A stretch of DNA of 64,000 bases from a virus (taxonomy: Duplodnaviria; Caudoviricetes), in the IMG/VR virus record IMGVR_UViG_3300033066_002300, positions 1 through 64,000 of that record; one strand, written 5' to 3'. Within the stretch, counting starts at the first letter, position 1. Each line of letters begins with the position of its first letter. The position numbers were made by a program, and so were the translations under genes. Positions 5,344 to 36,393 of the stretch are shown here, in pieces. Below the pieces are notes generated by a model, which worked only from the letters and a program-made list of their open reading frames with translations, did not search any database and was not told the origin of the DNA.

Positions 5344-6138
5344 ATGGCCTACGTTTACATATATTACGACCCAAGAAAGACTCCTATTGAGCCTATATAC
5401 GTTGGTAAGGGTATAGATGACCGTATGTATCATCATGTCAATAAAAAGTGCCATAATCCAATTCTTGAGCGTAAATTAATAAAGATTAAAGAACTTGGCC
5501 TGGAACCAATAATTGAAAAAGTGCAAAATGACCTCTCTGATGAAGATGCTCTGAAAATGGAAATAGAACTCATAGCTAAATATGGTCGAATTGACCTTAA
5601 AACAGGTACTCTTTGTAATTTAACTGAAGGAGGTGAAGGTAGCTCTGGTAGAATTGTTTCAGATGAAACTAAGCAATTATGGAGTGAACAAAGAAAAGGT
5701 AAGAAACAAACTGATGCACAATATGCAGCTAATTGTAATAGGACTATCTCTGAAGAAACTAAGGAAAAGCAGAGAAAAGCAAATAAGGGTCATTCAAGAC
5801 ATACTCCAGAGCAACTAAAAATTTTAAAAGAATTTAATACTGGACGAAAAGCATCACAAGAAACTATAGATAAAATGAGTAAACAAAGAAAAGGTAAACA
5901 AACTCAATCAAGTAACCCTGCTGCTATAAAAGTAAATATTTTTAATTCCACAGGCGATTTAATATATAGTTGTTATGGAAATTTTGAAGTTGTTTGCAAA
6001 GAAAATGGTTTACCTTCCTCAGCTTTAAGTAATTCTTATCTGAATGAAGGCAAACCAATTTATACAAGCAAAATGACTCCTAAAAAAACAATTTCTTTAT
6101 ATGAAAAATTTATAGGTTGGTATGCTATTAAGCAATAA
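5344..6138 (+). CDS. GIY-YIG homing endonuclease with NUMOD3-like repeats
   Basis: YVYIY...YVGKG..R...E..LI...NLTEGGEG; repeated SEETK. Confidence 0.85.
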   Translation: MAYVYIYYDPRKTPIEPIYVGKGIDDRMYHHVNKKCHNPILERKLIKIKELGLEPIIEKVQNDLSDEDALKMEIELIAKYGRIDLKTGTLCNLTEGGEGSSGRIVSDETKQLWSEQRKGKKQTDAQYAANCNRTISEETKEKQRKANKGHSRHTPEQLKILKEFNTGRKASQETIDKMSKQRKGKQTQSSNPAAIKVNIFNSTGDLIYSCYGNFEVVCKENGLPSSALSNSYLNEGKPIYTSKMTPKKTISLYEKFIGWYAIKQ

Positions 6139-8851: not shown

Positions 8852-9280
8852 TTATTTAAACAATGTTGCTGTCATTAAAAAGTGTTCACCTTCTGTTCCA
8901 TCCAAACCTTTATATTCATCTCCATTTACACAAATCGCCTTAAAACTTGGACAGTGAAAGTCGTCAAAATCTAATTGGTCGATTACCTCACCAATATCAG
9001 CCTTTAAAAAGAACCTAGAAGAAGACTGAACAAGAAATGTTATTGTTTTATATTCAACAAGATTTTCAACAGGCGCTTCTTCTGTCTTTAAATCTCCGAA
9101 GTTTATAGAAAAACTTCTAAGTTTAGAGACTAATTCTTTTTTTGACTTCTCATCAAAAGCATAATATTTGTCATCTTTTTTCTTAAGCCAAACTATTCTG
9201 CTGGCAAACTTTTTTAATTCGTCATCCTTGCGTTGCTTATAGCGATAATATAATTGTGCAATTTTTGTTGTATCTATCAT
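8852..9280 (-). CDS. hypothetical protein
   Basis: ORF in operon. Confidence 0.6.
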   Translation of the reverse strand: MIDTTKIAQLYYRYKQRKDDELKKFASRIVWLKKKDDKYYAFDEKSKKELVSKLRSFSINFGDLKTEEAPVENLVEYKTITFLVQSSSRFFLKADIGEVIDQLDFDDFHCPSFKAICVNGDEYKGLDGTEGEHFLMTATLFK

Positions 9281-10305
9281 TATTCTCTAATTAAAGTTTT
9301 TTTATTTTCGCTCTTAGCCTGATGTTGTAAATCAGCAACAGTATCACTTTCATCCATAATTTCAATTTTCAATAACTCTTCAATAATATCTTCAAGAGTT
9401 ACAACTCCAGAGAGAGAATTAAAATCATCATAAACAAAAGCCATGTGTGTTTTCTCCTTAATTAATAATTTCATTAAGGCATCCAATTTCATAGTCTCAG
9501 CAATAGACATAATTTTTTCCTTACGACACATCTCAGATACTGTTTTAGCTAAATCTGTGTCATAATTTAATAAATCTTTTGCAAATAAAATACCTATGAT
9601 ATTATCACGTGTATCTTCATACACTGGAATACGTGAATAATGTTCACTTTTAATTTTTTCTAATATTTCAAAATTTAAAACTGTCTTAGCCTCTAATCTA
9701 AACAATGTTACAACAGGAGTAATCACATCAATAGCTTTTTTCTCTGATAAATCCATAGCTCCAGAAACAATTCGTTGCTCATCAGAATTAATAGTCTCAC
9801 CAACATGCTCTTCCATTATGGCATTTAATTCTTCTTTGTCATAATGTTCTTTTATTTCTTCTCCTAAAATACGGTCTAAAACCATTGAAATAGGTTTCAT
9901 AAGAGGCCATAATAATTTTAAAAATATTTTAACAAGCCAAGTTAATTTAGCAGCAAACTCGAAAGCATATTTTGAAAATAAAGCTTGTGGCAAAATTTCT
10001 GCAAATAAAAATATAGCTGTAGCAGTAACAAAAGCTATAATTACACCTAAATAATTATTTGACTCACTTTCAGGAGCAACTTTATTCATTAAAGTTGTAA
10101 CAACAACATTAATCAATGTATTTGCAAAATTTAAAGTACAGATTAATAGATTTCCATTTTTTCTAATCTCATAAATTTTTTCTGCATCTTTATTTCCTAA
10201 CTTTATCTTTCTCTCAAGATAATTAGTATCAAGCTTAAGTAAGCCTATTGTAAGACCAGAAAATATTGCGGACAGTGCTAATAAAAAAATAATAATTGCT
10301 ATCAT
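9280..10305 (-). CDS. CNNM/DUF21 + CBS-pair membrane protein (CorB/CorC-like Mg2+ transporter)
   Basis: LSAIFSGL, AEILPQ, YSRIPVY, GVVTLEDIIEELL. Confidence 0.9.
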   Translation of the reverse strand: MIAIIIFLLALSAIFSGLTIGLLKLDTNYLERKIKLGNKDAEKIYEIRKNGNLLICTLNFANTLINVVVTTLMNKVAPESESNNYLGVIIAFVTATAIFLFAEILPQALFSKYAFEFAAKLTWLVKIFLKLLWPLMKPISMVLDRILGEEIKEHYDKEELNAIMEEHVGETINSDEQRIVSGAMDLSEKKAIDVITPVVTLFRLEAKTVLNFEILEKIKSEHYSRIPVYEDTRDNIIGILFAKDLLNYDTDLAKTVSEMCRKEKIMSIAETMKLDALMKLLIKEKTHMAFVYDDFNSLSGVVTLEDIIEELLKIEIMDESDTVADLQHQAKSENKKTLIRE

Positions 10306-10311
10306 AACTAT

Positions 10312-10340
10312 TTATACGATAAATTTATAAAATAGTTTCA
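10312..10340 (-). promoter_or_regulatory. ECF-sigma-like promoter TGAAAC-N16-CGTATAA
   Basis: exact spacing; 6 nt before ATG of the CNNM gene. Confidence 0.75.
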
Positions 10341-11170
10341 CCAAAATCCTCTTCCTCTGAAAAAATAGAAAGAATAGGTTCTTCATCAAAGAAAATAACT
10401 CTATCTTTATTTTTAATCTTATTAAAAATAGGGAATTCAATATCTTTAATTACATTTCTCTCTATAACCAAATCAGGATTCTTATGAGCATTATGCAAAG
10501 GAGGAAGAGAAGCTAATTCTTCCGTTGTAAATGGTTTAGAAGTTACAATTCTCTTTACATAAGAGCCTCTCTTATATTTAACTGGAAGGTCATTCCAATT
10601 AACACCTTTTTCATTCATCATTTTATCCTGCATCTGACTACCATTTAAATTTTGAAGGTCTTCATGTGGAAAAAGGCTTTGAGCAAGCATAGAGATACTA
10701 TTTTTAGTTGCATCATTTTCTCTCCATAATAATTGAATAGCGGCATCATGCAATGTAGGTGTTTGATAAATCCTACAATCAAAATTTGCTATCTTATTAT
10801 GATTAGGAAGAAACTCTTTTCTTGTATCATTAAAATATGGAGTTAACTTTCCAGTTAGCTTAGATAATATTTTTTGTTTTTTACCATCATTATAAATAGC
10901 ACTTTTTCTGTCACCAGAATAAAGAATAAGCGTAATTTCATCACTTTGAGTATATCCAACTACAGCATTTGTCTCATGAACAAGCATTTTTGTTGTATCA
11001 ATCATAAGATTACTGAGATTTTCATCAAATGGTCTTTTAAGGCCCTTTGTCCAATTATGAAAATTGTTTCCATCCAGTCTAATAATTACTGGCAGAGTAG
11101 GTATCATTATTTCTGGGGAGAAATTTTTCTCAAGCCACTTGCACCAATCTGATAAATTTTTGAAGTTCAT
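10325..11170 (-). CDS. thg1: tRNA(His) guanylyltransferase Thg1-like protein
   Basis: IIRLDGNNFH, GYTQSDEITL, FDCR, WRENDATKNSISMLAQ, W..LP...KRG. Confidence 0.92.
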   Translation of the reverse strand: MNFKNLSDWCKWLEKNFSPEIMIPTLPVIIRLDGNNFHNWTKGLKRPFDENLSNLMIDTTKMLVHETNAVVGYTQSDEITLILYSGDRKSAIYNDGKKQKILSKLTGKLTPYFNDTRKEFLPNHNKIANFDCRIYQTPTLHDAAIQLLWRENDATKNSISMLAQSLFPHEDLQNLNGSQMQDKMMNEKGVNWNDLPVKYKRGSYVKRIVTSKPFTTEELASLPPLHNAHKNPDLVIERNVIKDIEFPIFNKIKNKDRVIFFDEEPILSIFSEEEDFGETIL

Positions 11171-11174
11171 TAGT

Positions 11175-11936
11175 TTATTGTTTTAATTTCCATTTGTATC
11201 CATATGCTGTTTTAAGCTTTCCGCTTAAACATTCATAAATTTTATTTCTTGCCCCATCTCTTAGCCCTAAAGCTTTTTCTGCCTCTAAAGCAGTTTCAAA
11301 AACTTTAATTACTTTTTCTGTTTTTTTATCTACTTGTTCAATGTTTTTATAAGTAATTTTCATTTGATTTTTTATACGAGGCTTCATAAATTCCTCTTTT
11401 GTATAAGACCAAATTGAATTACCCCAGGTACCGCCTTTTTTTATTGAAGTAGATATATTAGTAGGTTGCTTCAAACCAATATCAACACTTGATATACTTT
11501 CCCACTCTCTAACAAAAACTCCATCTAATGTATACTGATAAACCTTTTTTCTTGCCCATGGTTTAGAAATATTTTTATCAGCAAAATTATTAACTCCCTC
11601 TCCTCCATCTGTCAAATTAGCTAATATACCTGTACCATCATCTATTCTACCAAAAAATTTAATAAACTCCGCTTCTATTTTTATTGCCTCTTCATTTGTC
11701 AAATTTTCATAAATTCTAATATGAATTGGTTCTTCTCCAGTTGCTTTTATTATTTGTTTAATGATATTATTTTTATGAGATTTTTTCTTAAGATTAGAGG
11801 GATATAAATGTGATTTTTCTCTTTTCTTTTTACCTTTGCCTACATAAAAAGGCTGATATTCAAATACATTATCATTAAACGTCCAAATCCCTTCCTTTAA
11901 CTGATTTAAATAAACATAAACGTAGTAGTTTTCCAT
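11175..11936 (-). CDS. GIY-YIG homing endonuclease with NUMOD1-like repeats
   Basis: YYVYVY...FYVGKGK..R...NLTDGGEG; VYQYTLDG; KTAYGYKW. Confidence 0.88.
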   Translation of the reverse strand: MENYYVYVYLNQLKEGIWTFNDNVFEYQPFYVGKGKKKREKSHLYPSNLKKKSHKNNIIKQIIKATGEEPIHIRIYENLTNEEAIKIEAEFIKFFGRIDDGTGILANLTDGGEGVNNFADKNISKPWARKKVYQYTLDGVFVREWESISSVDIGLKQPTNISTSIKKGGTWGNSIWSYTKEEFMKPRIKNQMKITYKNIEQVDKKTEKVIKVFETALEAEKALGLRDGARNKIYECLSGKLKTAYGYKWKLKQ

Positions 11937-11984
11937 AATTATCTTTTTTAGATAAATATGGGAGAAAATTACAAACGCTACATT

Positions 11985-12023
11985 TTAATATTTACACCAT
12001 TCACCAAGATTTTTAAATTCCAT
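11985..12023 (-). pseudogene. orphan 5' stub of thg1 (MEFKNLGEWCKY*)
   Basis: Matches Thg1 N-terminus MNFKNLSDWCKW; lies on the far side of the endonuclease. Confidence 0.8.
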
Positions 12024-12225
12024 TTTTTCTTCTTTCTAATTCTTTTTTCATACCATCAATTTTTTCAGACCACTCCTCATCAGAATCGCACTGAATCTCT
12101 ATAGGATAAACATTAAAATCTCTGTTTAGGTCTGTACTACCAATATAAGCCATTTCACCGCCATTAAATTTCATATCTAATGACATTAATTCATCGCATC
12201 GTTTAGTTGTTTTCTCGTCGGTCAT
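12013..12225 (-). CDS. hypothetical protein
   Basis: ORF in operon. Confidence 0.55.
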   Translation of the reverse strand: MTDEKTTKRCDELMSLDMKFNGGEMAYIGSTDLNRDFNVYPIEIQCDSDEEWSEKIDGMKKELERRKNGI

Positions 12226-12228
12226 AAT

Positions 12229-12828
12229 TTATTTCCAGATATCTTTATTTTTAATAAAATCAACAATATCATCAACAGAATCTATGGCTTGATTTTGAAG
12301 TTTTTCAAAAAGTTCGCCCATTTCCGTTACTTTGATTTCCTTATCTCTAATAGCCTTCAATACCTGCATATAACCATATATTGGAGACATCTTGTTTCTA
12401 AGCTTTGCAATAGGAGTCTCTGTCAATTCAGTGTGTCTAAATGGCTCAATAAACACTTCAAAATTTTCAACTGTATATTCTTCAGGAAATCTATTATAAA
12501 AAATAGAAGTAGAGTTACTTTGCAAGCCTAATGGTAATTCTTTTGGATTTACAGTTTTATGAAAAACCTTAAACCAACGTTTTACATGAACAATAACAAA
12601 ATCTCCATCAACTTGTTTATCTTCACTTCTAAGAAATTTTTGAAGTGATTCTCCACTTATTTCATTATGTTTGATAATAAGATGCTCTCTGTCAATCTTT
12701 GTGTCAATACCGATAATTTCTCCTACTTCTGGAACTTTTGTGCATTCAGTAGTTAATAAATGAACTGCAGGAGGGCTATCATCTCCAGGTTCTTTAAGCC
12801 AATATGAAATTTTTGATTTATCCGACAT
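12229..12828 (-). CDS. hypothetical protein
   Basis: ORF in operon. Confidence 0.6.
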   Translation of the reverse strand: MSDKSKISYWLKEPGDDSPPAVHLLTTECTKVPEVGEIIGIDTKIDREHLIIKHNEISGESLQKFLRSEDKQVDGDFVIVHVKRWFKVFHKTVNPKELPLGLQSNSTSIFYNRFPEEYTVENFEVFIEPFRHTELTETPIAKLRNKMSPIYGYMQVLKAIRDKEIKVTEMGELFEKLQNQAIDSVDDIVDFIKNKDIWK

Positions 12829-13459
12829 TTTCTTCTGGTTTTACAAGTGATTTTAATTTTTCTTCAAGTTCAACTTTAAGTGGAAGATATTTTTCCTTAT
12901 AATAGCTCCATTCAAATTCATCGCAATCCATCATTTCTTCATACAAAGTATTTCCTACTGAGAAATCAACTATTTTTCCATGCTCAATAATTTGAGCTGC
13001 AAACATAAGCATTCTCATAGAATGGAAAATACCTTTCACTCCTTTTGTAATATTTCCATCTCTAATTTTCATCTTACCATTAAACCAACTTGATTGTGAT
13101 TGAGTAAGATTATTCTTAATTAATTTCTTTGCATTTACTTCTCTTGAATAACTAGACTTTTCTTGTAAGATTGCCCACTCTGGAGCAAACACAGCCTCAA
13201 GATTCATGATATCATGTTTCTGCAATGCTTGTTTAAAAACATCTGGTGTATAGACATGCACATTAAGCTTAACTCCATTTAAAGTTAATCTTTTCTCTTC
13301 ATGAGGCAATAATGCGCCAGCTACCATAACAATATCGTAATCAGAGCCTTCATGGGCACTTCCGTATACTTGGGAACCATAAATAAAAATGTCTCTAATT
13401 TTCAATTTATTTATTCCAACTGCCTCAATTAATTCTTCTTTAGTAAAAGGTAGTTTCAT
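12818..13459 (-). CDS. Pol-beta superfamily nucleotidyltransferase
   Basis: YGSQVYG....SDYDIV with helical C-terminal domain. Confidence 0.85.
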   Translation of the reverse strand: MKLPFTKEELIEAVGINKLKIRDIFIYGSQVYGSAHEGSDYDIVMVAGALLPHEEKRLTLNGVKLNVHVYTPDVFKQALQKHDIMNLEAVFAPEWAILQEKSSYSREVNAKKLIKNNLTQSQSSWFNGKMKIRDGNITKGVKGIFHSMRMLMFAAQIIEHGKIVDFSVGNTLYEEMMDCDEFEWSYYKEKYLPLKVELEEKLKSLVKPEENVG

Positions 13460-13464
13460 ATTTT

Positions 13465-13740
13465 TTATCTTTGAGCTTGAAAATCTAATTGAATATGAAA
13501 GGGCTTAGCAATATCTATTTCTATCACTCCAAGCTCTTTACACTTTTTTGTTTGTAAGCACCACTGTTTAAACTTTTTAACATTCGAGTAACCATCAGTA
13601 GGTCTTCTAGTAAATATATTAACACCATCTACTACTAATTGATACTCAGTATACGATGGAGACTTCCTTGTTAAAGGGTCTCTTTGATAACGCATCCTAT
13701 ATACGTTAATAATTGCTTTTGGGTTTTTTAAATTACTCAT
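13465..13740 (-). CDS. hypothetical protein
   Basis: ORF in operon. Confidence 0.55.
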   Translation of the reverse strand: MSNLKNPKAIINVYRMRYQRDPLTRKSPSYTEYQLVVDGVNIFTRRPTDGYSNVKKFKQWCLQTKKCKELGVIEIDIAKPFHIQLDFQAQR

Positions 13741-30206: not shown

Positions 30207-31907
30207 TTATTTTTTATTTAACAACCATACTTTACCTTCTTCTAATAATATTAAACCTGAATTAGTATTTTTAATTACAGACTCAGTAGATACAAGGTCA
30301 CAATCCATTTGAGATACTTCAGAAAAGTCTTGTGTTCTTATGATTGAAATTTTATTATCTCGTGGTATAAATACAAATCCTTCTCCATCAGGATTTTTTC
30401 TAAATGCAAAATTTGAAAATCCTTCTATTTCATCCCCAGAAATATTCAATTTCATTTTTTCTATTTTAAATAATTTATATTTCATCTCAGAGTTTTCTCT
30501 GTATTGAACAATACCAATATTTTTATCCTGATAAAGGTCATTAATTCGTATAGGAGAATTTAAAACTGCTATTTCTTTACCTGCTTCATTATAAAAAATA
30601 TTTTGACCTCCGCCAGAATTATACATTAAGCCATTATTTTTTTGAAACCCTTTACCATAAACATTGATTGCGCTTATTTTTATATTTGAAGTTATCGTTT
30701 CATCTATAAAAATTTTATACATTCTATCTTCTTCAACAATCAATAAAATATCTTCAAATTGTTTTTCAATATATTTATCTGCAAACTTAAAATTAAGTTT
30801 TGTAGTTTTTCCTTTTCCATTATAAACATAAAGTTCATTACCTTTTTTTAATAAAATATTTTTATGTCCTACATAAACTTTATCATAATCCTTTTTAAGT
30901 ATAATATCAGTCATTGTAACATAACCTTTATTTCTTGCATTAAATAATTTAAACTCATTTTTTGTTTCTACAATTAAATGATTGTCAGATGTCAGCACTC
31001 TCTTTAAGTCATCTCCATCAAAAACATTAGTTATAATTAAATCCCCTTTATCATATTTAACAACATTAGAAGGTTTATTTATAGCCATTACAACTAGATT
31101 TGGATTGACATCTGTTAAGGACAATAAAAACCTTTCGCCACGTAAATAATAACGCTCAAATTGTCCCATAAAATTTTTATCTTGTATAGGCTCATAGCAT
31201 TTAGGATGTTTAAGGTCTGAATCACTTACAAAAATAGGTATCTTGTGTATCATTCTATCTGAAATCTTCAAATACTTCTTATGAATACCCTTAAATGGAT
31301 GTGTAAAAGAAAGCATATTAAATGCAAGAATAGATAATGCAAAAAAATCACTATTTTTATCTATTTTTCCTTGATATAAATAATCTCTAATTTCATCCAT
31401 CATTCTACCTGAATGTACATTCCCAGGAGTTTGATATGAGTCCGTATCAATTAATTTAATATCACCTGAATTATTCATCATAATATTAAAGCAATTTAAA
31501 TCTCCAATTACAATATTTAAATCATGAGCATATTTAATAGCTTTTATTAATTGCTCAATTATTTTTAGTTTAGACTTTTTATCTATACTGTGAGATTGAC
31601 AAAAAGATTTTACGTAAATATTACTTAATGGATAAAAGTCACTATTAAGATATTCCATAGTAAAACCTATTACTCTTGATTTTGAATCAAAAAGTAATTC
31701 CTGAGGAGCGATAAATAAATTTTTATCCAACTTTTTTATAAAGTCAAATTTTTCCTTAGTAATAGGAATAATACCATCATGATAAATTTTTGCAACTGTA
31801 TTTGAATTTAATTCATAAACAACACCTTCACCTCCCCGTGCTATCTCACGATTTAAATCAATTTTATATTTTGCACCAGCGTAATTAACTACATTTAAAT
31901 AAGCCAT
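30207..31907 (-). CDS. Ser/Thr protein kinase of the TerY-P triad type
   Basis: ARGGEGVVY, VAKIY, GDLN..NI, IDTDSYQ, D.FAL, THPFKG. Confidence 0.88.
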   Translation of the reverse strand: MAYLNVVNYAGAKYKIDLNREIARGGEGVVYELNSNTVAKIYHDGIIPITKEKFDFIKKLDKNLFIAPQELLFDSKSRVIGFTMEYLNSDFYPLSNIYVKSFCQSHSIDKKSKLKIIEQLIKAIKYAHDLNIVIGDLNCFNIMMNNSGDIKLIDTDSYQTPGNVHSGRMMDEIRDYLYQGKIDKNSDFFALSILAFNMLSFTHPFKGIHKKYLKISDRMIHKIPIFVSDSDLKHPKCYEPIQDKNFMGQFERYYLRGERFLLSLTDVNPNLVVMAINKPSNVVKYDKGDLIITNVFDGDDLKRVLTSDNHLIVETKNEFKLFNARNKGYVTMTDIILKKDYDKVYVGHKNILLKKGNELYVYNGKGKTTKLNFKFADKYIEKQFEDILLIVEEDRMYKIFIDETITSNIKISAINVYGKGFQKNNGLMYNSGGGQNIFYNEAGKEIAVLNSPIRINDLYQDKNIGIVQYRENSEMKYKLFKIEKMKLNISGDEIEGFSNFAFRKNPDGEGFVFIPRDNKISIIRTQDFSEVSQMDCDLVSTESVIKNTNSGLILLEEGKVWLLNKK

Positions 31908-31920
31908 TTATTTTATTTTT

Positions 31921-32082
31921 TTAATTTAAGTCTTTCCAATTATCAACATATGGAGGTCTAACACCAAAATGTATTATTTTTACGTTAATTTGATGTTTAT
32001 CACATATTCTGCATGTACGTTCTATTTGTTCGTGATATCACCATATATGTATATTACGTATTAAGAATTTTAAAAATCTCAT
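31921..32082 (-). pseudogene. 54-codon small ORF with an internal TGA
   Basis: MRFLKFLIRNIHIW*YHEQIERTCRICDKHQ...; TGA at 32038-32040. Confidence 0.5.
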
Positions 32083-32086
32083 AATA

Positions 32087-32251
32087 TCAATCTTTTAATT
32101 TTAAACTATAAATATAAAATCCTGTACCAATACACAAACAAATAAATCCAATATTTAATTGAACTTCCGTATTTGTAAATAACATTCTTAGTCCCATCAA
32201 AATAATAGCAATTAATAACATAGTTATGGTAAATTTGTCAATTTTTTTCAT
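32087..32251 (-). CDS. small 2-TM membrane protein (not in track)
   Basis: MKKIDKFTITMLLIAIILMG... Confidence 0.55.
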   Translation of the reverse strand: MKKIDKFTITMLLIAIILMGLRMLFTNTEVQLNIGFICLCIGTGFYIYSLKLKD

Positions 32252-32290
32252 AATTTAATAATTATGTTTTTATTTTTAATTTGGCTACTG

Positions 32291-32368
32291 GTACTAACAC
32301 AACCCTTGCTCAATTTGCGAATTACATAACTGCTAAACAAACTAAGCAAGGCTCGATAACGTTAGCAG
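32291..32368 (+). repeat. attC-like recombination site 1
   Basis: gtacTAAC...ccttgct...agcaagg...GTTagcag imperfect palindrome. Confidence 0.65.
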
Positions 32369-32373
32369 TAATA

Positions 32374-33144
32374 CTACATTTGTTCTCCGAATAAACTATT
32401 TTGTTCATAACCTTTTTCTTTTCTTTTTTCCTCCCCTTTTTCAGAAACAAATCTATCAGTAGCAATTTGATAATAATTTTCATCTATTTCAAAACCTACA
32501 AATTTTCTATTTGATTTTAAACAAGCAACGCCAGTACTTCCACTTCCCATAAATGGGTCTAAAACAACATCATTTTCTTTGCTTGAATTTTCAATAAGTA
32601 TTTTCATCAATTCGATAGGTTTTTCGCTTGGATGTTGTTTGTTTTTTACATTTGGTATATTTAAAACGCTGCGAGTTCCACAATTATTTATCTTATTAGC
32701 TTTCCCTTTATAAGCAAATATTATATATTCGTGACTATCCATGTAATACATATTTGTTATGCAATTATCTTTTGCCCAAATAAGAGTTTTAAATACATTA
32801 AACTTCGCTTTTTCTAATTCGTTTAACATTTCCTTTAAGCACTTATTATTAGTCATAACGTAAAAATGACCACCATCTTTTAAAACATTATAACATAAAG
32901 GTAGCCATTCTGAAAATTTAATATCATTAAACTCAAAGCCTCCGTTACCATTTATAAATTTATCTTCTTTTAACATTCCGCCAGTCCCTCCGCTATTACC
33001 TCTTTTAGTTGTTTTATATGGTGGGTCGGTAACTATTAAATCAATACTGTCGCTTTCTACTCCTTTAAGTAATTCAACACTGTTCCCTTGTTTTGTATTT
33101 ATCATATTTTTAATTTTTTCAAAATTATTTTTGCCATCGCTCAT
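32374..33144 (-). CDS. site-specific DNA methyltransferase (N6-A/N4-C, beta class)
   Basis: VTDPPY, HPSEKP, VLDPFMGSGSTG, GFEID. Confidence 0.93.
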   Translation of the reverse strand: MSDGKNNFEKIKNMINTKQGNSVELLKGVESDSIDLIVTDPPYKTTKRGNSGGTGGMLKEDKFINGNGGFEFNDIKFSEWLPLCYNVLKDGGHFYVMTNNKCLKEMLNELEKAKFNVFKTLIWAKDNCITNMYYMDSHEYIIFAYKGKANKINNCGTRSVLNIPNVKNKQHPSEKPIELMKILIENSSKENDVVLDPFMGSGSTGVACLKSNRKFVGFEIDENYYQIATDRFVSEKGEEKRKEKGYEQNSLFGEQM

Positions 33145-33200
33145 TTTTAAATTCTTTTTAGTTTGTACTTCTAATTAAGTTTTGTGGTATAAATCCCTAC

Positions 33201-33258
33201 TACCTGTAACAGCACCTATGCGGCATTAAAACGACCGCCAATCTGCAAAACGTTATAC
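33201..33258 (+). repeat. attC-like recombination site 2
   Basis: ctgTAAC-agcaccta-tgcgg...ccgc...tgc-aaaac-GTTatac; shares arms with site 3. Confidence 0.7.
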
Positions 33259-33265
33259 GCAAGCA

Positions 33266-34000
33266 CTACATTTCGTTTCCAAAGAGAGTTTGCGGTTCAA
33301 AATTTTTATTAAAATCTGCCCTCCTTTTCATTTTTTCAAAATGATTTGGGTCTTTCTCAATCGCTATAAATTGTCGGTTGTTCTTTAAGCAACTTTCAAT
33401 TATAGTTCCGCTTCCACCAAAGGGGTCAATACAAATATCATTTATATTACTGCTGTTTAAAATTAAGTGGTCATATAGTTCAACAGGTTTTTCTGACGGA
33501 TGTATTTTATTACCCCTTATTCCTTTTATACTTATCAATGCTGTGCTTCCCATATTGTTTATTTTTCTCGCTCCGCCTTTTCTGAATAAAACAATAAACT
33601 CAACATTCTGCATATAATATCCAAGCGGTGTGTGCATACCCTTATCCCAAACCAAAATATTTAGAACTTTAAACCCCACCTTTTCTCCATCTGATATTAT
33701 TTGTGATAAATTTTTCTGATTACTCATACAATAAAAGTGGGTACTGTTTTTCATAACTCTAAATAATTCATCCATCCATCTGTAAAAGGGTGGTATTTCA
33801 AACATAATGCCGCTTTCTTTTTCTTCTCTTGTAATGGTGTTCATTTCTAATTTCTTTTTTAAAGTATCAATTTGCAATTGAGCATGTTCAATTAAAAAAG
33901 CATTACGCTCCATATTAATTCTCATTTCAAGCTCTGCTTGATAGTTGAGTTTAAGTTCTTCCCAAATTTTTAATTCTTTTAAATCATCGTATCTACACAT
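33266..34000 (-). CDS. chimeric or truncated beta-class DNA methyltransferase lacking DPPY
   Basis: HPSEKP, IDPFGGSGT and AIEKD present; N-terminal ~60 aa is an unrelated coiled coil. Confidence 0.75.
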   Translation of the reverse strand: MCRYDDLKELKIWEELKLNYQAELEMRINMERNAFLIEHAQLQIDTLKKKLEMNTITREEKESGIMFEIPPFYRWMDELFRVMKNSTHFYCMSNQKNLSQIISDGEKVGFKVLNILVWDKGMHTPLGYYMQNVEFIVLFRKGGARKINNMGSTALISIKGIRGNKIHPSEKPVELYDHLILNSSNINDICIDPFGGSGTIIESCLKNNRQFIAIEKDPNHFEKMKRRADFNKNFEPQTLFGNEM

Positions 34001-34018
34001 ATTTTTTAAATTTATTTG

Positions 34019-34375
34019 TTATTCTCTATTATCTGACCAATGTGGTAAAGGGCAAAATCTACCAGTTTTTTTTGGTTCACCATCTTTTAATTGCGGACAT
34101 TTTGAATGATTACACTCGCCATCAGCTCCACTCTGACAAGAAACTAATTCATTTTCATCTTTAAATTCATCATACTTTAAATTAAGCGTTAACTCATTAG
34201 CACTTTGAGCGTCATTATCAGTATGCGCTAATGTTAAGTTTTTAAACTTACCAATACCATCAATAATAGTCCATTCATTCTCATCAAGAGTATTATTAGC
34301 TTTAATATGTAAATTAATCCAATCCGTTAGATGCTTGTAAATAGCATTATTATCTTTTTTGTTTTCTTGTGACAT
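34019..34375 (-). CDS. hypothetical protein with Cys/His-rich C-terminus
   Basis: C....DGEC.H..CPQ..D.EP...GR.CPL. Confidence 0.6.
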   Translation of the reverse strand: MSQENKKDNNAIYKHLTDWINLHIKANNTLDENEWTIIDGIGKFKNLTLAHTDNDAQSANELTLNLKYDEFKDENELVSCQSGADGECNHSKCPQLKDGEPKKTGRFCPLPHWSDNRE

Positions 34376-34456
34376 AATTTATTTATTGCTTTTTACAATT
34401 GTTTTTAATTCATCATTAAAGTCTATAATTACTTATCTATGAGTTTTTCCTCACAA

Positions 34457-34488
34457 CAAAGATATTCATAAATTTTGACACTTACAAA
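34457..34488 (-). promoter_or_regulatory. Bacteroidota housekeeping-type promoter TTTG-N20-TATCTTTG
   Basis: matches -33/-7 consensus. Confidence 0.6.
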
Positions 34489-34590
34489 TTGTTTTTTTTA
34501 TTAAGTCAGTATATTTCAACTTAACAATTAAATTTCTAATAAATCTATTACAATTTGGTCGTTTGACAATTAATTTTTATATTTCATATT

Positions 34591-34755
34591 ATGAAAGAAG
34601 AAGAAAAAAAAGAAAAAACACATATTAGTATTGTATTAGACCCAGAAATACTACAAAAGTTAGAAGATGGAAATTACAATAAATCTAAACTTATTGATTC
34701 TTTATTGGTAAAATACTTTAAAAAAAGAGAAAAAATCAATAATTCAAAAAAATAA
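34591..34755 (+). CDS. small RHH protein (54 aa, not in track)
   Basis: HISIVLDPEILQKLE...NKSKLIDSLL. Confidence 0.6.
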   Translation: MKEEEKKEKTHISIVLDPEILQKLEDGNYNKSKLIDSLLVKYFKKREKINNSKK

Positions 34756-34845
34756 TCATACTGATAATCAGTATTTTATATAATAAAAGTCGCCTAAAAG
34801 AGATTTTTATTTTTTATCTCATATTTATAATAAACAATAAAAAAC

Positions 34846-35022
34846 ATGGGAAGAAAAAAAATTACAACAGAAAAGAAGAAGCAAAAGTTATCTATAACCA
34901 TTTCTTTGAACAATGCTCAAAAGCTAAATGAGCTTGAATTTACCAATAAGTCTAAATTAATTAATTGGCTATTAAGAGAACATTTTGGACTTAACCAGGA
35001 AGGAGGTCAAAATGAAAACTAA
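34846..35022 (+). CDS. small RHH protein (58 aa, not in track)
   Basis: KLSITISLNNAQKL...NKSKLINWLL; TATTTAT upstream. Confidence 0.6.
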   Translation: MGRKKITTEKKKQKLSITISLNNAQKLNELEFTNKSKLINWLLREHFGLNQEGGQNEN

Positions 35023-35395
35023 AAAATTGACCACCACAATTAACAGCAGATGTATCTATAAAAGCAAAAAGCTATCATTGCATACAAAAAACATCTTATA
35101 CAAAGTAGTTACAGATATTATCTGCGGAAATGAGGAACCAAGTTTCTTATATATGCAAGCAAATATATTTACTGTATGGCCAGAAGATATTGTTTGGAAT
35201 GCAATAGATGAATTGTTATCTAATGATATTATGTACATTGACTTCAATGATGAAGACGAAGAATTAGAGGAAGATGAATATCAAATGGAAGAATTAGTAT
35301 TCAATCCAGAATTTCTTGAGAAGATATATCCATCATTCGGTTCATGCCCTTGCTGCAATCCTGCGCCAGTTAATTTTAATGTAAACTATAATTAA
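35012..35395 (+). CDS. acidic hypothetical protein
   Basis: ATG 35012 after GGAGG; CPCC tail. Confidence 0.55.
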   Translation: MKTKKLTTTINSRCIYKSKKLSLHTKNILYKVVTDIICGNEEPSFLYMQANIFTVWPEDIVWNAIDELLSNDIMYIDFNDEDEELEEDEYQMEELVFNPEFLEKIYPSFGSCPCCNPAPVNFNVNYN

Positions 35396-35397
35396 TT

Positions 35398-36324
35398 ATG
35401 TCAAAACTAAAAAAGCATAATATTTTTTTAGAAGAAATTAAACTGCACCATCCTGAGTTAAAAGTTTTAGGAACCTACATTAATAGTCAAACAAAAATAT
35501 TGTTGGAAGATAATTTTGGAATACAATATCTATTTAGACCAAATGATTTGCTTAAAGGTTCAAAACCATCTATAAATTCATCTGTCAATAAAAATTTAGC
35601 TTTTAAAATTAAAGCGGAACAAATACATGGCGAAAAAACATATGATTATAGTCAAGTAAATTATATTACAAATAGAGATAAAGTAAAAATTGTATGTAAT
35701 AAATGTAATTTAGCATTTCTTCAAAGACCAACCAGACACTTATCTGGAGATGGATGTCCTCAATGTGGATTTGTTAAATCACAAATATCAAATCAACAAA
35801 TATTAAATCAAAGAGCAATTAGTATTGTTAAAGATATCTTTTTAAAGCATAACAATAAAATAAATTGTGATAAACTTTTATACAAAGGAAATAAAGCAAA
35901 AGCCATTTTTGGATGTAATGTGAAACCAGAACATGGTTATTGGATGGCAACACCTAATGATATATTAGATGGTTGCGGATGTCCATTATGCAATTCTTCT
36001 AAAGGAGAATTAGAAGTAGAATCAATACTTATAGAAAAAAATATTTTTTTTATAAAAAATAAAACTTTTACTGGATGTAAGCATAAGAGCTTATTGAAAT
36101 TTGATTTTTATTTACCAAAATATAATATCTGTATAGAATATGACGGTTTACAACATTTCAAACCGATTTCATTTTTTGGTGGAAATGAGCAATTAAAAGA
36201 GAACAAAAAAAGAGATAAAATAAAAAACAAATTCTGCAAGAATAATGGTATATTCTTAATAAGAATACCTTATACAGAATTTAATGAAATAAGATATATT
36301 TTAAGCTCATTATTAAATTTATGA
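35398..36324 (+). CDS. homing-type endonuclease (Zn-finger repeats + Vsr/DUF559-like PD-(D/E)XK domain)
   Basis: YDYS.V.Y, GCP.C repeats; SKGE, FDFYLP, IEYDG.QH, D..KN.FC, LIRIPY. Confidence 0.85.
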   Translation: MSKLKKHNIFLEEIKLHHPELKVLGTYINSQTKILLEDNFGIQYLFRPNDLLKGSKPSINSSVNKNLAFKIKAEQIHGEKTYDYSQVNYITNRDKVKIVCNKCNLAFLQRPTRHLSGDGCPQCGFVKSQISNQQILNQRAISIVKDIFLKHNNKINCDKLLYKGNKAKAIFGCNVKPEHGYWMATPNDILDGCGCPLCNSSKGELEVESILIEKNIFFIKNKTFTGCKHKSLLKFDFYLPKYNICIEYDGLQHFKPISFFGGNEQLKENKKRDKIKNKFCKNNGIFLIRIPYTEFNEIRYILSSLLNL

Positions 36325-36393
36325 AGCAATTTCTTTTGCATCATTTATTGTATATTTTTTGCCTGCGTAATTAACGGCGCTAATTGTTCCCAT
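36319..36393 (-). pseudogene. orphan 5' stub of the kinase gene (MGTISAVNYAGKKYTINDAKEIAS*)
   Basis: Matches kinase N-terminus MAYLNVVNYAGAKYKIDLNREIAR; its stop overlaps the endonuclease 3' end. Confidence 0.8.

Follow-up and report, generated by a model that had tools for sequence, protein, structure and literature searches.

A GIY-YIG endonuclease gene and a recoded gene start within phage thg1: a probable homing cassette that brings its own replacement 5′ end

The thg1 gene, which encodes a protein of the tRNA-His guanylyltransferase family, was examined together with the GIY-YIG endonuclease gene that precedes it in a 64,000-nt stretch of viral DNA (the window; positions 1 to 64,000 of the 96-kb IMG/VR virus record IMGVR_UViG_3300033066_002300). 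Taken as a whole, the locus is very probably explained by a cassette, consisting of the endonuclease gene and a re-spelled gene start, that has been inserted in thg1. Insertion would have taken place inside the coding sequence, after nt 34, with the cassette-borne start joined in frame to the resident gene body, and neither an intron nor an intein would be needed because the 3′ end of the cassette brings a new start codon and re-spelled thg1 codons 1–11. Upstream of the cassette the resident 5′ end persists as a stub that is no longer tethered to the gene, and a stop codon supplied by the leader of the cassette closes it. This architecture was found at 15 loci, including the window. The mechanism put forward in the original prediction for this DNA is supported as essentially right, and the case is both stronger and broader, with the arrangement being a fixed architecture of a thg1-specific endonuclease lineage and not a one-off.

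The thg1 locus of the window and its empty counterparts

The features of the locus, all on the minus strand, are as follows.

12023-11985, minus: 12-codon stub open reading frame (ORF), MEFKNLGEWCKY followed by a stop, with its ATG inside the end of the 70-aa gene (11-nt overlap)
11990..12023, minus: native thg1 nt 1–34 (codons 1–11 plus a T), now a dead stub; 33/34 nt as in the thg1 start of the endonuclease-free locus L134, with an end point common to eight type-1 loci (defined below)
11137..11989, minus: proposed inserted cassette, 853 nt, comprising leader, endonuclease gene, linker and replacement thg1 nt 1–34
11937..11989, minus: cassette leader, with an in-frame TAA (11987-11985) that closes the stub, a conserved 17-mer (11968-11952) and an A-rich stretch before the endonuclease ATG
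11175..11936, minus: gene for a free-standing GIY-YIG homing endonuclease (253 aa) with DNA-binding modules of the NUMOD type
11171..11174, minus: 4-nt linker from the endonuclease stop to the new thg1 ATG
11137..11170, minus: cassette-borne thg1 replacement start, with a new ATG and recoded codons 2–11, including Gly7 to Ser (GGT to TCA)
10325..11170, minus: working thg1, encoding a 281-aa protein of the tRNA-His guanylyltransferase family; the cassette start and the resident body together form a hybrid
12013..12225, minus: 70-aa gene, the last 11 nt of which overlap the native thg1 start (the stub); homologues 86–90% identical precede intact thg1 genes with the same overlap
12828-12229, minus: 199-aa gene, first in locus order, upstream of the 70-aa gene

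The bounds of the cassette were taken from the comparison of the window with L134, a multi-locus junction alignment, the right boundary in the loci L205 and L211, and the contigs X2 and X3. Both the unannotated 12-codon stub that the original prediction had reported to overlap the preceding gene, and the intact thg1 said to begin four nt past the endonuclease stop (linker 11174-11171; ATG at 11170), are in place. The thg1 product (PF04446, E 5e-25) begins with MNFKNLSDWCKW and is encoded by a single ORF with no coding gap, the replacement start (11170-11137) being in frame with the resident body. The stub and the working start are alike at 8/12 residues and 23/34 nt.

Two homologues of the 70-aa protein, with 86% and 90% identity, are encoded on the contigs of loci L133/L134 and L135, where the flanking genes share ~83% nt identity with those of the window, the endonuclease is absent, and thg1 comes straight after the 70-aa gene with the same 11-nt overlap. 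These thg1 genes start MEFKNLGDW or MVFKNLGDW, and endonuclease-free relatives therefore have the layout that had been anticipated for them. The first 34 nt of thg1 in L134 match the window stub at 33/34 positions but the window working start at only 23/34, thus the stub is the resident thg1 start, and its identity with a real thg1 start that overlaps the 70-aa gene in the same way means that it is not a chance ORF. Over the next 33 nt the window and L134 differ at two positions, and the remainder of the gene is ~85% identical at the nt level. The earlier claim that a diverged duplicate of the gene start had been supplied is borne out by this comparison, whereas that of an insertion near codon 12 holds for the insertion itself, its position now being refined to after nt 34 (codon 11 plus one base). 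A second pair of filled and empty sites is made up of L049 (carrier) and L001 (endonuclease-free), which are syntenic on both sides at 77–79% nt identity, and here the L001 thg1 start matches the L049 stub at 28/34 positions and the working copy at 22/34.

A nucleotide search of annotated phages returned only distant Bacillus phage thg1 fragments, and no relatives of the flanking genes for the 199-aa protein and the CNNM protein (the CNNM/CBS gene is next after thg1 in locus order) were found in IMG/VR. The thg1 neighbourhood differs in almost every related large phage, and the window's flanking genes were found within 5 kb at none of 25 loci (L001–L025). The thg1 gene itself seems to be shuffled between genomic contexts.

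A group I intron or other RNA was considered, and an Rfam search over positions 9000-13500 gave only a chance-level small RNA (sRNA) match (E 0.19). An intron- or intein-encoded endonuclease was likewise rejected, as a stop codon terminates the stub, thg1 starts at an ATG of its own, and the endonuclease gene is separated from the stub ORF by only 48 nt and from thg1 by only 4 nt, which is too short. The proposal that the endonuclease entered thg1 without an intron thus stands.

The GIY-YIG domain was detected in the N-terminal half of the endonuclease (Pfam PF22945; 37.9 bits against a cut-off of 27), together with NUMOD1 (PF07453; 24.8 bits against a cut-off of 22.8) and an I-HmuI NUMOD-like match of 17.4 bits, which is under its cut-off. 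Among 59 homologous sequences Y7, Y31, G33, G35, H43, E88 and N107 are invariant and R39 is conserved in at least 90%, so that the catalytic Tyr, Tyr, His, Glu and Asn belong to the invariant set and the catalytic Arg nearly does. Differences between the endonuclease genes at the three codon positions (0.19/0.14/0.42) indicate purifying selection. An AlphaFold model (mean pLDDT 89) consists of two parts joined by a disordered, low-confidence linker at residues 114–121. The top folds matched by the model are GIY-YIG nucleases, including the catalytic domains of I-TevI (1mk0/1ln0; target TM-score 0.55, with weak E-values) and UvrC, although the whole-model Foldseek E-values are weak, and for the C-terminal part the match is to the region of I-HmuI (1u3e) that binds DNA. 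A sequence search of the PDB gave a marginal GIY-YIG match (E 0.8). I-TevI is the intron-encoded GIY-YIG endonuclease of T4 td, and the thg1-linked enzyme resembles it in layout, with the GIY-YIG catalytic domain at the N terminus and the DNA-binding modules at the C terminus, joined by a flexible linker, but it is not intron-encoded and the sequence similarity is at family level only. The catalytic domain, the DNA-binding modules carried on a linker, and the presence or absence of the gene at its site among related genomes, with signs of lateral spread (see below), are as expected for a free-standing GIY-YIG homing endonuclease. A second GIY-YIG gene in the window (5344-6138, plus strand; 264 aa) shares 38% identity in the catalytic domain with the gene linked to thg1 and is convergent with a 438-aa gene.

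Recurrence and mobility of the cassette

The endonuclease has ~200 homologues. Nine of these (54–83% identity), whose contigs were examined, are all encoded directly upstream of thg1, as are those at five IMG/VR loci, and one homologue with 38% identity is not upstream of thg1. The neighbouring genes are unrelated from carrier locus to carrier locus. When metagenomes were scanned with an alignment of the endonuclease only distant endonucleases with 50% identity or less were returned, and the exact leader 17-mer had 80 matches in IMG/VR, of which that in the L005 contig alone was real. The window is AT-rich and was likened to large phages of freshwater, riverine, biofilm and wastewater metagenomes.

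Carriers occur with both of two thg1 types, the products of which share 29–36% aa identity (~33%). Type-1 genes are like that of the window and start M-x-F-x-x-L-G-D-W-C-K-W, whereas type-2 genes are canonical phage thg1 genes with the start ...L-G-D-R-M-K-x-Y-E. At eight type-1 loci the stub ends at the same base and is followed by a homologous leader, the conserved 17-mer and the endonuclease ATG; conservation of the leader in the eight was seen in the multi-locus junction alignment, and the in-frame leader stop is present in all type-1 carrier loci but one. In four type-2 carriers (L136, L154, L160 and L205) the stub ends just past the homologous Lys codon. In total, 11 endonuclease-bearing loci besides the window have homologous stubs with the same end point.

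A scan for self-similarity between each thg1 start and its own upstream DNA was too insensitive because the working copy is recoded, and a scan for the native motif was used instead. A second native start motif was found at none of the 103 endonuclease-free thg1 loci, and the duplication in such relatives that the original prediction had named as counter-evidence was therefore not seen. Among the carriers, nine have the motif upstream, in the stub, while their working copies lack it, L042 shows the opposite pattern, with the motif in the working copy alone, and the other five gave no match.

The new thg1 ATG lies within the last codons of the endonuclease gene at eight loci (L048, L049, L051, L052, L136, L154, L160 and L164), and 1–4 nt past, or overlapping, the endonuclease stop at four (the window, L005, L045 and L050). 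It follows a spacer in the remaining three, of 23 nt in L205 and, in L042 and L043, of ~45 nt that include a motif resembling a phage promoter. Upstream of thg1 in L164 (L164:1155-1517) the endonuclease can be recognised by its C-terminal half alone, with the thg1 ATG still in the last endonuclease codons, and this is probably a decaying copy.

It is extremely improbable that the GIY-YIG protein is instead a functional partner of Thg1, for example a tRNA or nucleic-acid repair nuclease, with adjacency kept by selection and the stub being an unrelated rearrangement scar. Such a partnership would fit the strict adjacency to thg1 at 15/15 loci and the start/stop overlap in several, which suggests translational coupling. 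However, the endonuclease is absent from ~100 of the ~118 thg1 loci sampled, close relatives differ in its presence at the same site, and its NUMOD DNA-binding modules are of the homing-endonuclease type. In addition, the stub accompanies the endonuclease (a clear one is wanting at L051, L052 and L164) and was never found without it.

Several observations point to an inserted cassette that moves between phages. On a thg1 tree the carriers are scattered, three of them having endonuclease-free sisters, and at least four gains or losses are required by the branches that have good support. Endonucleases from across the two thg1 clades are 52–60% identical whereas the thg1 proteins are 29–36% identical, and the difference at third codon positions is 0.42 for the endonuclease versus 0.55 for the adjacent thg1, with the endonuclease value lower in 28/28 pairs. 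Stubs differ from one another by 0.23/0.13/0.48 at the three codon positions and live thg1 starts by 0.19/0.11/0.40; that is, stubs differ mainly at third codon positions, as live starts do, and therefore were coding-constrained until recently. The stubs would appear to be renewed by fresh insertions. Two decayed stubs were identified, in L005 and L042.

A 6.9-kb contig from a biofilm run spans window positions 10869-12100 with 76 differences. At least 36 of these fall in positions 10900-11024, in the thg1 body (29% divergence), which leaves at most 40 (no more than 3.7%) for the 1,076 nt outside that interval, comprising the 5′ end of thg1, the endonuclease gene, the stub and the last part of the 70-aa gene. 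Most of the 70-aa gene is replaced, further upstream, by 1,076 other bases. By these counts, this one metagenome contig has a nearly unchanged cassette beside a strongly diverged thg1 body. In a second run, a 980-nt contig covers positions 11128-12107 with 12 differences.

The patchy distribution might also be explained by one ancient insertion inherited vertically with thg1, the endonuclease being immobile or domesticated and lost repeatedly and precisely between the 34-nt direct repeats. These repeats could indeed mediate loss, the identities of endonuclease and thg1 are correlated among type-1 loci (Spearman 0.57), and L211, described below, looks like a deletion derivative. However, the window stub is identical at 33/34 positions to the live allele of a relative that is 16% diverged elsewhere, and substitutions in stubs are of the coding type. 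The endonuclease is also younger than thg1 at third positions in every pair, is conserved at 52–60% identity over thg1 clades that are only ~33% identical, and is found nearly unchanged in a background where the thg1 body is ~29% diverged, making a single ancient insertion very unlikely.

In the carrier L205 and the endonuclease-free L211, a segment of 51 nt containing the linker and recoded start is 100% identical and ends exactly at the junction, whereas identity over the gene body is ~80%. The L211 copy of this segment directly joins the upstream gene's end at a short AAATAA repeat (L211:1440-1545 compared with L205:1440-1545), and L211 appears to have lost the endonuclease and stub, leaving a presumably immune allele. 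L154 (L154:640-770) has two nested thg1 stubs upstream of a single endonuclease gene, the outer of 13 codons plus a stop and the inner a partial L-G-D-R-M copy abutting the leader, and these would be the fossil record of two successive invasions.

Recoding of the gene start and the proposed homing mechanism

The most conserved N-terminal motif of phage Thg1 proteins (L-G-D, then W-C-K or R-M-K) is encoded just upstream of the junction. The xGD part of the motif is intact in 59/78 non-redundant endonuclease-free alleles and 9/12 stubs but in only 1/15 working copies (Fisher p = 6e-7), so that it has been lost in 14/15 working copies versus 19/78 free alleles. Most altered working copies have Ser in place of Gly, which in the window is a three-base change, and others have a changed Asp. 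We infer from this pattern that the recoded start may give the carrier immunity to its own endonuclease, and that the target site may span the junction, with the stub retaining only the left half and the working copy having the right half with a recoded left half. Neither copy in a carrier would then be a full target, because the stub lacks the right half and the left half of the working copy is recoded.

Some endonuclease-free alleles are also altered in this motif. L010 (L010:5001-5040), a sister to the carrier L005, encodes Ser-Glu for Gly-Asp with AGT, not TCA, as the Ser codon, and may be an independently arisen resistant allele. L140, L141 and L151, which are endonuclease-free, encode LSS like the working copy in L136, and no cassette remnant was found upstream of thg1 in these three.

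In the mechanism proposed, the endonuclease would cut an endonuclease-free thg1 at or near the codons for the conserved Leu-Gly-Asp and (Trp-Cys or Arg-Met)-Lys, just upstream of the junction, and a co-infecting genome that bears the endonuclease would serve as the repair template. Homology on the left would come from the native 5′ end together with whatever synteny exists upstream, and homology on the right from the thg1 body, with the cassette copied in between. Later deletion of the endonuclease could leave a recoded, presumably immune, start.

The stub may have a further role, put forward here tentatively, as a working part of the element, namely a left homology arm that travels with it and, possibly, a site next to the leader that its own enzyme binds, making the element gene-addressed and not locus-addressed. 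If so, homing into thg1 could occur without shared synteny, the element having crossed between thg1 clades that are only ~33% identical, and the recoded start would have a double role, conferring immunity and directing repair to the stub. In that case L211, and perhaps also L010, would be immune survivors of endonuclease loss, and the xGD polymorphism would be the record of an arms race.

A different origin for the duplicated start is that stub and duplicate are debris of one-sided, illegitimate break repair, with the enzyme cutting elsewhere in thg1 or its flanks in the manner of Seg enzymes and the Gly-to-Ser change being a hitch-hiking marker. T4 offers examples both of illegitimate, one-sided repair at microhomologies and of free-standing enzymes that cleave at a distance (PMC2988022), L042 retains LGD beside an intact endonuclease, and the nested stub of L154 resembles an imprecise event. 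However, the same junction at 12 loci, in two thg1 clades that are ~33% identical, would be hard to obtain from independent illegitimate events, and the Gly-Asp codons have been replaced, by TCA or otherwise, in 14/15 working copies despite heavily diverged synonymous sites in the endonuclease. This origin is therefore considered unlikely.

Other points weigh against insertion of a homing cassette with an immunising start. The deep nodes of the thg1 tree are poorly resolved, with bootstrap support unsettled, and the break point in the X3 contig is only bounded, between 11025 and ~11150. No co-conversion tract is visible past nt 34 in the window/L134 pair. Three carriers have no clear stub, with that of L051 being doubtful, L052 having a 6-codon remnant, and L164 having a truncated endonuclease. 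The cut site is deduced from sequence, the loci in the xGD comparison are phylogenetically non-independent, and the association could reflect hitch-hiking of a cassette-borne polymorphism; in L042, an intact endonuclease stands beside a native-type LGD working copy.

Relation to known systems and further observations

To our knowledge, homing endonucleases are thought to be safe in coding sequence only via introns or inteins, or by gene splitting in which the halves reassemble. The thg1 cassette would represent a third route into coding sequence in phages, and one that is well replicated, in which insertion 11 codons into a conserved gene would cost the host nothing because the element brings a replacement gene start. 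No link between thg1 and homing endonucleases, and no replacement of a 5′ end in phages, was found in the literature.

The closest parallel in design is found in the mORFs of fungal mitochondria, which bring along a C-terminal segment, of foreign origin, for atp6, atp9, cox2 or nad3, while the native end stays behind as a stub (PMC3630166). These four genes are the targets in Glomus (PMC3630166), and atp6-ORF360 of Allomyces macrogynus is a further case (Paquin, Laforest and Lang 1994, as cited in PMC3630166). Both mORFs and the thg1 cassette combine an endonuclease ORF with a diverged terminal duplicate that becomes the expressed end, leaving the native end as a stub, with no intron, and in both the native end is nearer to the genes of relatives than the inserted copy is (PMC3630166; here 33/34 versus 23/34 and 28/34 versus 22/34). 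However, mORFs affect the 3′ (C-terminal) end of mitochondrial genes, whereas the thg1 cassette affects the 5′ end and start codon in double-stranded DNA phages, supplies the stop that closes the stub and is known from a single target in two deeply diverged gene clades. The cassette thus works as a 5′ mirror image of a mORF but is not a member of that group.

In T4-like phages, the MobA/gene 60 cassette includes an insert-encoded diverged homologue of the target, homR (Bonocora et al. 2011, as cited in bioRxiv 10.1101/2022.08.31.505936), and is described in the citing source as protecting its carrier by a bypass sequence and as having many independent insertions. As presented there, MobA is, like the thg1 cassette, a phage homing element within a conserved coding region that brings a diverged homologue of the target region, but it involves an HNH nickase, splitting of the gene into two expressed polypeptides, a host deletion of 55–75 nt and protection by a 50-nt translational bypass. 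The thg1 element encodes a GIY-YIG enzyme, deletes nothing, leaves the gene in one piece with a new start and would protect, if at all, by codon recoding, making it a simpler relative of the MobA cassette and not a member.

Free-standing enzymes of T4 that spread by 'intronless homing' include SegB, SegF, SegG and MobE (PMC2988022, PMC2330249, PMC2790892). Like the thg1 cassette, the Seg/Mob group has a free-standing GIY-YIG enzyme that is patchily distributed over related phages, and it spreads by double-strand-break repair with co-conversion of flanks; but its genes are intergenic and cut a neighbouring gene, with no interruption of coding sequence and no replacement gene end. Endonuclease genes located in coding sequence without an intron, as here, are also known from nrdA/mobE of Aeh1 and gene 43 of phage 25 (PMC2988022). 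In those split genes both halves are expressed and must reassemble, whereas in thg1 the upstream 11-codon fragment is discarded and the cassette copy would replace its function.

The natural series formed by these loci, with empty sites, fresh, decayed and nested stubs, an endonuclease-free allele with a recoded start, and two host-gene clades, could serve as a test system for target choice, carrier protection and decay. Gene callers will mis-annotate such stubs and the N-termini of the genes concerned, and a short stub that precedes an endonuclease gene could help to locate its target site.

The leader 17-mer was considered as an autorepression operator of the I-TevI type, on the basis of a likeness by eye to thg1 nt 46–66. 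This was dropped because type-2 thg1 genes have no such likeness though the leader is conserved, and because the 17-mer is not over-represented in the window, where no repeats beyond chance were found. A scan for sigma-70 promoters and terminators gave 19 sites versus 16.4 expected. A promoter-like motif, TGTAAC followed after ~17–25 nt by CGTATA(A/G), recurs before many genes of these phages and is present upstream of thg1 or the stub in L008–L010, L005, L042, L043 and L048; the conserved element of the endonuclease leader is different.

Elsewhere in the window, a 24-codon ORF (36319-36393, minus strand) matches the start of a 566-aa kinase-like gene (30207-31907, minus strand) at 12/24 residues, as judged by eye. 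The ORF lies 4.4 kb upstream of that gene, across an island (31908-36318) that contains two genes resembling DNA methyltransferases, a 308-aa endonuclease-like ORF (35398-36324, plus strand) and small ORFs, and the region looks like a second gene-start duplication in the same phage.

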